DNA of 4,536 nt, taken from IMG/VR virus record IMGVR_UViG_2778261451_000003; one strand, 5' to 3'. A program made the translations under genes and the position numbers. This document shows positions 1,341 to 4,536 of this stretch, piece after piece (the stretch's first letter is position 1; each line of letters begins with the position of its first letter). The notes beneath the pieces are model-generated. The model saw nothing but the letters and a program-made list of their open reading frames with translations, did no database searches and had not been told where the DNA came from. Origin of the DNA: a virus (taxonomy: Duplodnaviria > Heunggongvirae > Uroviricota > Caudoviricetes).

Positions 1341-1364
1341 AGCTCGCTACGGCGAGCTTTTTAT
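1341..1364 (+). terminator. Intrinsic terminator closing the lipoprotein cassette: stem AGCTCGC (1341-1347), loop TACG, stem GCGAGCT (1352-1358), then T-run
   Basis: Perfect 7-bp GC-rich stem with 4-nt loop followed by TTTTT; sits 126 nt after the second lipoprotein stop and about 100 nt before the holin start. Confidence 0.6.
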
Positions 1365-1466
1365 ATTGCATCGTCTCCAGCATATATATCAATTAAGGCT
1401 CTGATTGATGTGTCTGAAAGCCTACACATAATAACTATGCCATCCGTTCCGTGCGGAGGTGAGGCT

Positions 1467-1682
1467 ATGAAATCCATGGACAAAATTTCAACAGGCATTG
1501 CCTACGGCACCTCCGCAGGCAGTGCTGGCTACTGGTTTTTACAGTTGCTCGATAGAGTAACTCCGTCACAGTGGGCTGCAATCGGTGTGCTGGGTAGTCT
1601 GGTATTTGGCCTGCTGACGTACCTGACAAACCTTTATTTCAAGATTAAAGAAGGCAAGCGTAAGGCTGCACGGGGAGAGTAA
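1467..1682 (+). CDS. Phage-21-type pinholin (class II holin, S21-like), 71 aa, dual-start motif
   Basis: Translation [71 protein letters not shown] has two transmembrane segments and a charged C-terminus, matching the recalled S21/EssD family. Met1-Lys2-Ser3-Met4 is the classic antiholin/holin dual start. Strong ribosome-binding site GGAGGTGAGG at 1455-1464. The upstream extension of the six-frame ORF from 1410 has no ribosome-binding site and is not used. Confidence 0.9.
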
Positions 1683-1686
1683 TTCA

Positions 1687-2037
1687 ATGACTCAAAAATA
1701 TGAACTGATTGTGAAAGGGATCCGCAATTTTGAGAATAAAGTTACGGTAACTTTAGCGTTACGGGACAAAAAACGCTTTGACGGTGAAATTTTTGACCTG
1801 GACATCTCGCTGGACCGTGTTGAAGGTGCCGCGCTGGAGGTTTATGAGGCAGCAGCCAGAAGGAGCATCAGACAGGTCTTCCTGGATGTTGCTGCCGGGT
1901 TATGTGAAGGGGATGAGCAGTCGCCGGAAAAGCGCCCCGTAATTTTAGATGCGCAGAATGTGTGGATAACCTACAAAGGGAAGCTACCAGGAAGAATTAC
2001 TGGTTCTCTGAAGACTCCTCCAGCATCACAACCTTAA
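1687..2037 (+). CDS. DUF1327 / YdfR-like protein of unknown function, inserted between holin and endolysin (116 aa)
   Basis: ATG at 1687 lies 4 nt after the holin stop TAA (1680-1682), with ribosome-binding site GGGGAGAG at 1672-1679. No transmembrane segment. The N-terminal two-thirds (MTQKYELIVKGIRNFENKVTVTLALRDKKRFDGEIFDLD...EAAARRSIRQVF) resemble, from memory, the YdfR family that occupies the same holin-endolysin slot in the E. coli Qin prophage. The C-terminal ~40 aa could not be assessed. Confidence 0.65.
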   Translation: MTQKYELIVKGIRNFENKVTVTLALRDKKRFDGEIFDLDISLDRVEGAALEVYEAAARRSIRQVFLDVAAGLCEGDEQSPEKRPVILDAQNVWITYKGKLPGRITGSLKTPPASQP

Positions 2038-2100
2038 GTCACTGACCGGAACAGATAAACCTGTCCGTGGGCAGAAACCGATAAATCCTGATAAATATCC

Positions 2101-2634
2101 ATGAACGCAAAAATCAGATACGGCCTGTCGGCTGCCGTTCTGGCACTGATTGCCGTCGGTGCGCCCGCGCCTGATATTCTCGACCAGTTTCTGGATGAAA
2201 AAGAAGGTAACCACACAACGGCATACCGCGATGGGTCCGGCATCTGGACCATCTGTCGGGGTGCCACGATGGTGGATGGAAAACCCGTTTTTCCCGGTAT
2301 GAAACTGTCGAAGGAAAAATGCGACCAGGTCAACGCCATTGAGCGTGATAAGGCGCTGGCATGGGTGGAGCGCAATATTAAAGTACCACTGACCGAGCCA
2401 CAAAAAGCGGGTATCGCGTCATTTTGTCCCTATAACATTGGCCCCGGTAAGTGTTTTCCGTCGACGTTTTATAAGCGGCTGAATGCTGGTGATCGTAAAG
2501 GTGCATGCGAGGCGATTCGCTGGTGGATAAAAGATGGTGGGCGCGATTGCCGCATACGTTCAAATAACTGCTATGGACAGGTTATTCGTCGTGACCAGGA
2601 AAGCGCATTAGCCTGTTGGGGGATAGATCAGTGA
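2101..2634 (+). CDS. SAR endolysin (signal-anchor-release, T4-lysozyme-like muramidase, glycoside hydrolase family 24), 177 aa
   Basis: The N-terminal segment [17 protein letters not shown] is Gly/Ala-rich and weakly hydrophobic, as in SAR domains. The catalytic E-x8-D-x5-T spacing in [19 protein letters not shown] matches T4 lysozyme E11/D20/T26. Overall similarity to recalled phage 21 R and DLP12 RrrD-type lysozymes. Start has a weak ribosome-binding site. Confidence 0.9.
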
Positions 2635-3098
2635 GCAGAGTCGCCGCGATTATTTATGCTCTGGTTATCTGCATCATCGTCTGCCTGTCGTGGGCGGTCA
2701 ATCATTACCGTGATAACTCCATCGCCTACAAAGAACAGCGTGATAAAAAAGTCAGTGAGCTGAAGCAGGCGACCGCCACCATTACTGACATGCAGCAACG
2801 CCAGCGTGCTGCTGATGTACTCGATGCTAAATACACGAAGGAGTTGGCTGATGCGAAAGCTGAAAATGATGCTCTTCGGCGCAAGCTTGATAATGGTGGT
2901 CGGGTGCTCGTCAAAGGAAAATGCTCTGTGCCATCCTCAGCCGAAACCTCCAGCGCCTCCGGCATGGGCAATGATGCCACCGTCGAACTCTCTCCAGTTG
3001 CTGGACGAAACGTTCTCGGTATCCGGGACGGAATCATCAGAGACCAGACAGCACTGAGAACGCTTCAGGAATATATCAGGACGCAATGCCTTCGATGA
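2631..3098 (+). CDS. Rz: Rz i-spanin (inner-membrane spanin subunit), lambda-like, 155 aa, GTG start overlapping the endolysin stop
   Basis: From GTG 2631 (GTGA overlap with endolysin stop 2632-2634) the protein begins [39 protein letters not shown]..., close to recalled lambda Rz [39 protein letters not shown].... It has an N-terminal transmembrane segment and a coiled-coil periplasmic domain. The six-frame track's TTG 2616 start is an upstream extension. Confidence 0.9.
2851..3057 (+). CDS. Rz1: Rz1 o-spanin (outer-membrane lipoprotein spanin subunit) embedded in the +1 frame of Rz, 68 aa
   Basis: ATG 2851 preceded by AAGGAG (2838-2843). Translation [44 protein letters not shown]... has lipobox VVGC and a Pro-rich mature region, matching recalled lambda Rz1 (MLKLKMMLCVMMLPLVVVGCTSK...KPPPPPAWIMQPPP). 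Lies entirely inside Rz, the classic embedded architecture. Confidence 0.8.
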
Positions 3099-3272
3099 TA
3101 GCGATAATTTTACTCATCATCCTTCACATTTGGCTCTGTAGACAGGGTGGTGATCACTTCTGGAGTGAATCCAGATTAAACATCTCATTGCTGATGCTTG
3201 AAGTTGAGCATCTGGCGCGCGGTAAGGGGCTGCGTTGAAATAAGAGCCAGTCATTAAAAATACCTGGGTTTA

Positions 3273-3298
3273 GCCTCGCATTCGCGGGGCTTTTTATT
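3273..3298 (+). terminator. Intrinsic terminator for the plus-strand lysis operon: stem GCCTCGC / GCGGGGC (one G-U wobble), loop ATTC, then TTTTTATT
   Basis: 7-bp GC-rich stem at 3273-3279 / 3284-3290 followed by a T-run at 3291-3298; about 175 nt after the Rz stop. Confidence 0.55.
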
Positions 3299-3544: not shown

Positions 3545-3589
3545 GCCAGCGAGTCCGGTTCTGGCGCGGAAGAAACCGGACGTTATGAT

Positions 3590-4000
3590 TTAGTGCGGAA
3601 ATATTTGTGTAGTGTTCTGAATGTTCTCAGTAAATAGTAATGAATTATCAAAGGTATAGTAATATCTTTTTTGTTCGTGGATATTTGTAACCCACCGAAA
3701 AACTCCTGCTTTAGCAAGGTTTCTTCTGTATTCCTGAAATGTGATCTCTCTGGATTTCAGCTTATTAGAGGTCGTTTCTATAAGATGCCTATCCTTTGAA
3801 AATTTGACAGACACAATGTTTTTTAGGCCCTTTAATAACACTGTATTATCATTTTTTAATACAATATGAACATTCTCTGTGGCTAAATAGTAAATGTAAT
3901 GTGAGACATTGTGACGTTTTAGCTCAGAATAAAACCAGTGATAGTTTAAATCGTTTCGAACTTTATCAAATATTTGTTTAAAAATGACTACCTGATCCAT
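3590..4000 (-). CDS. DUF1398 / YbcV-YdfO-like prophage protein (136 aa from the second ATG)
   Basis: Six-frame ORF 3590-4015. The second in-frame ATG (3998-4000) is preceded by GAAGG at appropriate spacing, whereas the first ATG (4013-4015) has no ribosome-binding site, so 136 aa is preferred. Markedly AT-rich coding sequence. Resembles from memory the YbcV/YdfO family of lambdoid prophage accessory genes in E. coli K-12 (DLP12, Qin); the family assignment was not verified. Confidence 0.65.
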
Positions 4001-4057
4001 AGATAAACCTTCCATGTGATATGAGGGGGCGTAGTCTGCACGATTATCTAAATTGCT

Positions 4058-4291
4058 TCAATCTGGTCTGACCTGCTTTCTGAGCAATTCAGTAATGTCA
4101 CTCTTTTCTTTGTTTGCTTCAGGCGAAACTCTTTTTTCTGAGCACAGTCTCCGGCGGCAGGCTTCAATGACCCAGGCTGAGAAATTCCCGGACCCTTTTT
4201 GATCAAGAGCGATGTTAATTTGTTCAATCATTTGGTTAGGAAAGCGGATGTTGCGGGTTGTTGTTCTGCGGGTTCTGTTCTTCGTTGACAT
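4058..4291 (-). CDS. Small ribbon-helix-helix (Arc/MetJ-like) DNA-binding protein, possibly YlcI/YnfO-like (77 aa)
   Basis: N-terminal basic tail (KNRTRRTTTRN) followed by IRFPNQMIEQINIALDQKGSGNFSAWVIEACRRRL, i.e. beta-strand then two helices as in Arc and CopG-type repressors. First gene of the minus-strand unit, immediately inside cos. Weak ribosome-binding site. Confidence 0.55.
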   Translation of the reverse strand: MSTKNRTRRTTTRNIRFPNQMIEQINIALDQKGSGNFSAWVIEACRRRLCSEKRVSPEANKEKSDITELLRKQVRPD

Positions 4292-4439
4292 GAGGTTGCC
4301 CTGTATTCAGTGTCGCTGATTTGTATTGTCTGAAGTTGTTTTTACGTTAAGTTGATGCAGATCAATTAATACGATACCTGCGTCATAATTGATTATTTGA
4401 CGTGGTTTGATGGCCTCCACGCACGTTGCGATATGTAGA

Positions 4440-4536
4440 TGATAATCATTATCACTTTACGGGTCCTTTCCGGCGATCCGACAGGTTACGGGGCGGCGAC
4501 CTCGCGGGTTTTCGCTATTTATGAAAATTTTCCGGT
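4440..4536 (+). other. cos: Lambda-type cos site: cosN with 12-nt cohesive end GGGCGGCGACCT at 4491-4502, cosQ-side sequence upstream, start of cosB-side sequence downstream (truncated by window end)
   Basis: 4441-4490 (GATAATCATTATCACTTTACGGGTCCTTTCCGGCGATCCGACAGGTTACG) matches the recalled right end of phage lambda with about one mismatch. 4491-4536 (GGGCGGCGACCTCGCGGGTTTTCGCTATTTATGAAAATTTTCCGGT) matches the recalled first 46 nt of the lambda left end. Confidence 0.85.

Follow-up and report, generated by a model that had tools for sequence, protein, structure and literature searches.

What does a 116-aa gene do inside a phage lysis cassette, between a holin and an endolysin? The question is raised by the IMG/VR virus record IMGVR_UViG_2778261451_000003, of which a stretch of 4,536 nt (here called the window) was analysed on one strand, 5' to 3'. 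The window is the late region of an Escherichia lambdoid prophage, and the gene (1687-2037, + strand, ATG at 1687 and stop TAA at 2035-2037) belongs to the ydfR family, DUF1327. The answer that we tentatively favor, while leaving substantial room for others, is that YdfR is the product of an optional cargo gene of the late operon that has no promoter of its own, and is a cytoplasmic RNase E/RNA-binding protein rather than a part of the lysis machinery.

The open reading frame (ORF) matches PF07041 at E = 9.5e-42, scoring 141.6 bits against a cut-off of 25 with residues 1-112 covered, and PHROG 406/2091, neither of known function, match it as well. Upstream is a class II holin of the phage 21 S type (1467-1682, + strand, 71 aa), which has the MKSM dual-start motif and a match to PF04971 (Phage_holin_2_1) at E = 1.4e-34. 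Downstream, after a 63-nt spacer, is an rrrQ-type lysozyme (2101-2634, + strand, 177 aa, ATG at 2101) with an E35-D44-T50 triad and a match to PF00959 (Phage_lysozyme) at E = 1.4e-24; it is related to phage 21 R (PDB 3hde, E = 4e-16), and its N-terminus is Gly/Ala-rich, hydrophobic and like a signal-arrest-release (SAR) sequence. The Pfam matches of all three bear out the original prediction, made from the letters alone, that a DUF1327/YdfR gene sits between a phage-21-type holin and a SAR-type lysozyme, and its coordinates are exact, from the holin stop at 1682 through the ATG at 1687 and the 116 aa to the length of the spacer. This is a real gene and not a chance ORF, because the core has a ratio of nonsynonymous to synonymous substitution rates (dN/dS) of ~0.28 and because proteins annotated as YdfR family in many genomes are 95-96% identical to it. 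Gene and position are already known, being annotated in the K-12 prophage Qin and in hundreds of genomes, and the arrangement is not new, since the order holin-YdfR-lysozyme is annotated in Qin, in Shiga toxin (Stx) phages, and in mEp460.

Alignment with family members at 25-50% identity yields a core of ~72 residues (1687-1902, + strand, residues 1-72) in which Y53-E54 is invariant and Y5 nearly so. The AlphaFold2 model of the core has a predicted local distance difference test (pLDDT) score of 88.4 (model mf726d4a275a9), with antiparallel strands at residues 5-14, 18-27, and 34-43 and a long helix at 50-72, placing the Y-E motif at the helix start; the window protein has this beta-beta-beta-alpha core. 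The full-length model is poor, with pLDDT 58 overall and below 50 for residues 73-116, and was not used for fold searching. Those residues (1903-2034, + strand; PEKRPVILxAQNVWITYKGKLPGRITGSLKTPP) form a swappable tail unlike that of K-12. Lengths across 294 Escherichia-type loci are 103, 104, 110, 114, 116, 129, 148, 162, 176, 183, 206, 211, 213, 260, 268, 296, and 329 aa, differences that come from differing tail modules after the core, and when the long extensions of the 176 to 329 aa forms were scanned with Pfam and PHROG, only families of unknown function came back. The conserved unit is the 72-aa beta-beta-beta-alpha core, followed by swappable tails.

The core has a median dN/dS of 0.28 over 2149 pairs, with the holin at 0.11 and the lysozyme at 0.065, so it is under purifying selection, of a looser kind than that on its neighbors. 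The tail module has a dN/dS of 0.47 at an unusually low dS of 0.15, and at the nucleotide level the tail segment 1887-2036 is the least diverse stretch of the cassette (pi 0.035-0.105), below the essential lysis genes. The highest diversity in the cassette, pi 0.46, is in the beta2-beta3 segment (1767-1796), because this segment comes as two deeply diverged alleles, DKKRFDGEIFD and IGGYPSLLLPD; in a region-wise dN/dS calculation the between-allele pairs are saturated there. Small modules of the ydfR region are evidently shuffled: in a 112-aa protein, P0154, the tail module EKRPIILEAQRVWITYKGKLPGRITGSLKTPP of YdfR follows an unrelated N-terminal coiled coil, which itself is similar to the outermost C-terminal extension seen in 183-aa YdfR forms.

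No convincing structural relative emerged. Foldseek finds no match for the core model in BFVD at E ≤ 0.001, a PDB sequence search with the family profile gives only a chance match to CENP-P at E = 1.3, the PADLOC defence models do not match YdfR, and NCBIfam has no model for it. No transmembrane segment or signal peptide is found in YdfR, and a grand average of hydropathy (GRAVY) of -0.34 with no hydrophobic stretch is consistent with the earlier description of the protein as soluble.

The most concrete lead comes from a screen in which the N-terminal half of RNase E was used to look for interacting proteins of E. coli K-12 (Gopel et al., RNA Biol 2026, PMC13232886). In the bacterial two-hybrid part of that work, a clone of K-12 YdfR residues 1-72 was recovered three times with the RNase E N-terminal half, a segment that coincides exactly with the core as defined here. 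K-12 YdfR interacted with constructs in which the RNase E catalytic domain was present, Rne1-598 was purified along with Strep-YdfR, and the YdfR eluate was rich in nucleic acid that resisted DNase (PMC13232886). The window core is identical to K-12 YdfR at 58 of 72 residues, and we infer that binding of RNase E or RNA is the biological function of the protein and applies to the window variant as well. Literature searches on essQ/rrrQ and DUF1327 yielded nothing further on function. "Functionally uncharacterised," as the family had been described, was nearly right, apart from the RNase E binding of the K-12 ortholog reported in 2026 (PMC13232886).

How the gene is expressed is indicated by the layout around it. 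A terminator-like hairpin (1341-1358) precedes the holin and another (3272-3291) follows the last gene after the spanins, and on the + strand within 1359-3271 there is no promoter-like or terminator-like site. Since the cassette has no such internal site, ydfR is read as co-transcribed with the lysis genes, as the original prediction also had it. At the start of the window, an STnc100-like RNA (1-130, + strand, its 5' end cut by the window edge) scores 51.2 bits against an Rfam gathering score of 47; it is the sole above-threshold match in an Rfam scan of the whole window, and ydfR, its tail, the spacer and their surroundings gave none. The match probably marks a late-promoter leader downstream of Q, in which case all of the sequence downstream of it would be late operon. 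In the closest locus, L001, which is 98% identical, this region lies between Q upstream and the terminase downstream, and the closest matches of the window sit in prophages that appear intact, having Q, terminase, and portal genes.

Translation appears to be tied to the holin in the same close manner. Reading the sequence, a Shine-Dalgarno (SD)-like GGGGAGAG is found in the final holin codons (1672-1679, + strand), 7 nt 5' of the ydfR ATG, and the holin stop TAA (1680-1682) is separated from that ATG by the 4-nt gap TTCA (1683-1686); a ribosome-binding site and tight coupling to the holin had both been predicted. The SD at the holin end serves whichever gene comes next, with an equivalent purine-rich holin end preceding rrrD in DLP12 and the lysozyme in E. 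coli DEF2, and the window and Qin having ydfR at that place. When ydfR is present, the lysozyme start is approached either by an ATGA overlap, as in the K-12 type, or across a 50- or 63-nt spacer ending in an AT-rich leader without SD. In the window the spacer is 2038-2100 (+ strand), and its final ~30 nt, CGATAAATCCTGATAAATATCC, are this conserved lysozyme leader, as compared with H-19B and Qin. Insertion of ydfR hence changes the translation of the endolysin, because its start is then reached by the overlap or by the spacer leader that lacks an SD. It is possible that ydfR has an indirect effect on lysis by this route, through altered endolysin translation, even were the protein itself unrelated to lysis.

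Whether the lysis genes need ydfR can be asked of natural cassettes without it. DLP12 has a phage-21-type holin and no ydfR, and there the endolysin comes directly after the holin as had been stated, the stop of essD overlapping the start of rrrD. In E. coli DEF2 (locus L313, 1426-2179) a holin and a lysozyme of the types seen in the window, the lysozyme with 88% aa identity, are adjacent without ydfR, and with the same 4-nt gap. With holin and lysozyme adjacent in DEF2 and DLP12, ydfR is an extra gene between genes that are neighbors in relatives, which is one of the traits that define a moron. E. coli 2015C-4136CT1 (locus L314, 1342-2028) has a 10-codon ydfR relic (MNKQYELVVK and a stop), then an unrelated 90-aa minus-strand gene, then the lysozyme. 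The holin/endolysin (S/R) junction is a site that exchanges cargo genes.

The divergent members of the family, from Serratia, Sodalis, and metagenomes, came from an exhaustive HMMER search, and all 7 of the distant members with enough readable flanks are outside lysis cassettes, 6 in lambda-like tail modules and 1 in a Q-to-holin region. The Sodalis ligni gene is just 5' of gpL, the Serratia gene separates the tail assembly chaperone from the tape measure, and in metagenomic prophages the sites are gpL-gpK (two), gpM-gpL (one), and 5' of gpJ (one); a member with tandem domains has Q on one side and a holin from another family on the other. The tail-module copies encode 72-94 aa and are 20-30 nt from flanking late genes on the same strand, and because of these short gaps they too are taken to be late-operon passengers. 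Outside Escherichia, a convergent, variable minus-strand gene follows the DUF1327 gene in 9 of the 10 contexts read. A protein of 183-187 aa without a Pfam match recurs in this role at 42% identity beside divergent DUF1327 proteins (minus strand; L094 4967-5515, L099 5273-5821, L310 768-1328), and the other convergent genes (L092, L097, L101, L307, L308) encode small helical proteins of 58-99 aa. The DUF1327 gene and its convergent partner may be a two-gene module, or the place may be an insertion hot spot.

Within Escherichia the picture is different. Among 286 Escherichia-type loci the upstream holin is of the phage-21 type in 282 and the gap between holin and ydfR is exactly 4 nt in 279; the next ORF is the rrrQ-type 177-aa lysozyme in 243 of 272 loci, and the gap to it is -4, 50 or 63 nt by tail type, being -4 in 83 loci. 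Homologs outside lysis cassettes, which the original prediction had named as evidence that would count against a lysis role, are the rule for the divergent half of the family, whereas the Escherichia loci are nearly all lysis-linked. Because the gene is optional, its site exchanges cargo, and the divergent members are elsewhere, we read the Escherichia linkage as history rather than function. A lysis role had been proposed from position, and this is not supported when distant members are located elsewhere and E. coli itself can do without the gene; the fallback then offered, a late-expressed accessory gene, is the better-supported half, and the earlier interpretation as a whole is partly supported.

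On the reading that we favor, ydfR would be translated from the ribosome-binding site inside the final holin codons, and since it uses that embedded site YdfR would be made late, together with the lysis proteins. The functional unit would be the 72-residue cytoplasmic beta-beta-beta-alpha domain, the C-terminal tail and spacer serving as exchangeable filler between the core and the endolysin leader. The core would dock on host RNase E at its catalytic N-terminal half, and perhaps on RNA too, and so may modulate how certain RNAs decay or are processed late in infection; these would probably be phage RNAs, which uninfected K-12 lacks. It would have no action on holin, endolysin or spanin. A more elaborate proposal, for which we would not claim much probability, makes YdfR a late adaptor whose beta3-alpha core on the RNase E catalytic domain directs or shields a specific phage RNA, for example the long late/lysis transcript, and so sets the amount or timing of lysis proteins, with the exchangeable tails and the two beta2-beta3 alleles specifying different RNA or protein partners. 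If that adaptor were real, toxin release by Stx phages would be influenced.

Several points weigh against an RNase E-binding cargo protein. The authors of the screen note that the co-purified RNA may derive from a contaminant, a full-length YdfR fusion with a short linker interacted with Rne1-597 only, and overexpression of YdfR in uninfected cells altered few transcripts and left growth unaffected (PMC13232886), which makes a global inhibitor or activator unlikely. The core is not basic, with an isoelectric point (pI) of 6.2. RNase E binding is known from the K-12 ortholog and would have to carry over to the window variant. The low dS of the tail is left unexplained, the simplest guess being a recent recombinational spread of the tail module. 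Finally, with a holin upstream in 282 of 286 Escherichia loci the position is near-fixed, and the linkage could be functional rather than historical, with a lysis-linked role there.

That last point is the starting place for the view that YdfR is a cytoplasmic lysis regulator, tuning pinholin triggering or the release or activation of the SAR endolysin, which would explain both the position between the two genes and the coupling to the holin. The near-invariant position with its 4-nt coupling (279-282 of 286 Escherichia-type loci) and the constancy of the company, one holin type and one lysozyme type (243 of 272), are on its side. So is the ATGA overlap of the Qin ydfR stop with the lysozyme start, where endolysin translation may depend on translation of ydfR. 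The Keio ydfR mutant is envelope-leaky, scored as positive with the dye chlorophenol red-beta-D-galactopyranoside (CPRG) in the single condition of 30 C and LB without salt (Paradis-Bleau 2014 supplement, PMC3879167), but we suspect that polarity explains this equally well, the SAR-type lysozyme gene rrrQ downstream being driven from the kan cassette. YdfR is not a conventional membrane antiholin, because it has no transmembrane segment or signal peptide; its hydropathy and the soluble beta3-alpha model argue against membrane association. Lysis by phage 21 is attributed to S, R, and Rz/Rz1 alone, the phage-21-type holin of DLP12 does without ydfR, and DEF2 pairs the very same holin and lysozyme types without it. 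Co-occurrence with lysis genes holds in Escherichia and fails for all 7 divergent members with readable flanks, which are in tail modules or elsewhere, and overexpression caused no growth defect. We consider a lysis regulator unlikely, distinctly so.

Two further explanations accept that the gene is cargo. It might be a classical moron that benefits the lysogen or protects the phage, by superinfection exclusion, defence or as an anti-defence decoy against a late-triggered host system. The family does occupy classic moron sites (the S/R junction, tail chaperone-tape measure, around gpM/gpL/gpK, and Q-S), the variable convergent minus-strand gene in 9 of 10 non-Escherichia contexts is typical of accessory-gene hot spots, and the two deeply diverged beta2-beta3 alleles would fit as well. 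In a screen, overexpression of K-12 ydfR raised the streptomycin minimum inhibitory concentration threefold, and the gene is listed as a candidate survival gene (PMC12924614). Yet the gene is read almost not at all in uninduced K-12 under standard growth (PMC13232886), it has no promoter or terminator of its own in 1359-3271 on the + strand and sits 4 nt from the holin, no PADLOC defence family matches it, and the 20-30 nt spacing of the tail-module copies from late genes indicates late co-transcription there also; a moron of the classical sort is in our view a minority possibility. Or it might be a functionless passenger, retained by being wedged between essential, linked lysis genes and by carrying the endolysin start context in some variants. 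It is dispensable in the natural cassettes of DLP12 and DEF2, truncations, frameshifts, and tail replacements are frequent among database entries, and constraint is relaxed (dN/dS 0.28 in the core and 0.47 in the tail versus 0.07-0.11 in the neighbors). Still, a ratio of 0.28 clearly indicates purifying selection, prophages of Yersinia, Serratia, and Sodalis keep the domain at unrelated sites and at identities as low as 25-30% with no change in Y53-E54, and the gene is present in plaque-forming and Stx phages (101 phage records), which together make a passenger without function very improbable.

For optional cargo, ydfR is common. Of 5426 complete E. coli genomes, 4341 (~80%) contain the core, at 8503 places and up to 9 places per genome. 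The lysozyme type is found at 11113 places in complete E. coli genomes, ~2600 more, a surplus that again speaks for an optional ydfR. The 1.7-kb cassette is present at ≥80% coverage in 776 of the 5426 genomes, annotated there as holin, YdfR family protein, lysozyme, and lysis protein. All 101 phage records that match ydfR are Escherichia lambdoid or Stx phages, among them mEp460, BP-4795, and phage 86, and 63 of the 101 are Stx-converting. In the GenBank record of H-19B the ydfR homolog is unannotated in a 400-nt "gap" between S and R, and the order in an O157:H7 prophage is SASA esterase, holin, YdfR, lysozyme, Ant, Rz. The family as a whole is very small, with 287 clusters at 90% identity among 5.8 billion proteins and, in the exhaustive HMMER search, 88 representatives at 50% identity among 1.84 billion proteins. 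A motif-based scan of one genome per species, which is insensitive to divergent members, found it in Escherichia/Shigella only, plus probably contaminated records. The E. coli-type ydfR loci in the records of a Veillonella parvula metagenome-assembled genome (MAG), a Bacillota MAG (L086, L088), and Enterococcus faecalis (P0071) are most likely contamination or binning errors. With the core in ~80% of complete E. coli genomes, 63 of 101 phage records Stx-converting, and function not established, the gene is of modest interest; RNase E binding is a concrete and testable lead, and the exchange of cargo at the S/R junction along with the tail-module relatives make RNA metabolism late in infection a more promising place to look than lysis timing.

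The window has further genes around these. Ahead of the holin are two paralogous lipoproteins in tandem (241-669 and 820-1215, + strand), each with a TolA C-terminal domain (PF06519, E = 4e-21 and 1e-14) and both in phrog_5772. These lie between the late leader and the holin and could mimic TolA or serve as decoys for it, for instance against colicins or phages that depend on Tol; a relative in O157 prophages is labelled "TonB family protein." Beyond the lysozyme is an Rz-like spanin (2631-3098, + strand, PF03245, E = 1.8e-28) with a GTG start overlapping the lysozyme stop, and embedded in it in the +1 frame is Rz1 (~2851-3057, + strand, PF06085, E = 8.1e-21, placed by the annotation of L001). 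A conserved 50-aa hydrophobic ORF (3086-3238, + strand, phrog_11822, E = 8.6e-38), hypothetical in L001, overlaps the end of Rz and precedes the second hairpin. On the minus strand are a DUF1398 gene (3590-4015), with counterparts ybcV in DLP12 and ydfO in Qin, and a YlcI/YnfO (DUF3950) gene (4058-4291), with counterparts ylcI in DLP12 and ynfO in Qin. The PHROG label "head protein" for the DUF1398 family looks doubtful.

Among the closest known systems is Qin itself, with the order essQ-ydfR-rrrQ-rzpQ. Its YdfR (b1555, P76160) has the PF07041 domain and is likewise encoded between a phage-21-type holin, 4 nt away, and an rrrQ-type lysozyme that follows it. DNA identity to the window is 86% from the holin to ydfR codon 69 (1440-1892), the sequences are unrelated over 1893-2090, and homology resumes at 2091, 10 nt before the lysozyme ATG, with 92% identity in rrrQ. 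K-12 YdfR has 103 aa with an unrelated tail, and its stop overlaps the lysozyme start (ATGA) where the window has the 63-nt spacer. Qin is a defective prophage, unlike the apparently intact ones that hold the closest matches of the window. The stretch 3552-4536 is 97% identical to Qin and the lysis region only 86-92%, which indicates mosaicism. The cassette of phage 21 and DLP12 (S21 pinholin, R21 SAR endolysin, Rz/Rz1) shares the holin Pfam family and the Rz/Rz1 organisation. The window holin has 86% DNA identity to both DLP12 essD and Qin essQ, and in DLP12 as in the window the next gene is served by an SD within the holin. DLP12 differs by having no ydfR and an endolysin start that overlaps the holin stop, and its endolysin is of the rrrD/R21 type, related to the window lysozyme at the level of protein family and without DNA similarity.

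As an optional single gene between otherwise adjacent genes, ydfR resembles the lambdoid morons, such as bor and lom of lambda and HK97 gp15 at the tail chaperone-tape measure junction, and the family occupies that same chaperone/tape-measure junction in a Serratia prophage. Classical morons reportedly come with a promoter and a terminator to themselves, and the prophage expresses them; ydfR differs from them in being translationally coupled to the holin, with neither element found. By its binding of RNase E (PMC13232886), K-12 YdfR can be compared with the phage modulators T4 Srd, T7 gp0.7, and phiKZ Dip and with the host adaptor RapZ, although no sequence or fold relation was detected. It differs from the phage modulators in being a late gene and not an early one, and from the group in being known by binding, with few transcripts altered on overexpression (PMC13232886). 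Like RapZ and Srd, K-12 YdfR binds the catalytic N-terminal half of RNase E, and with RapZ it shares the co-purification of RNA (PMC13232886).

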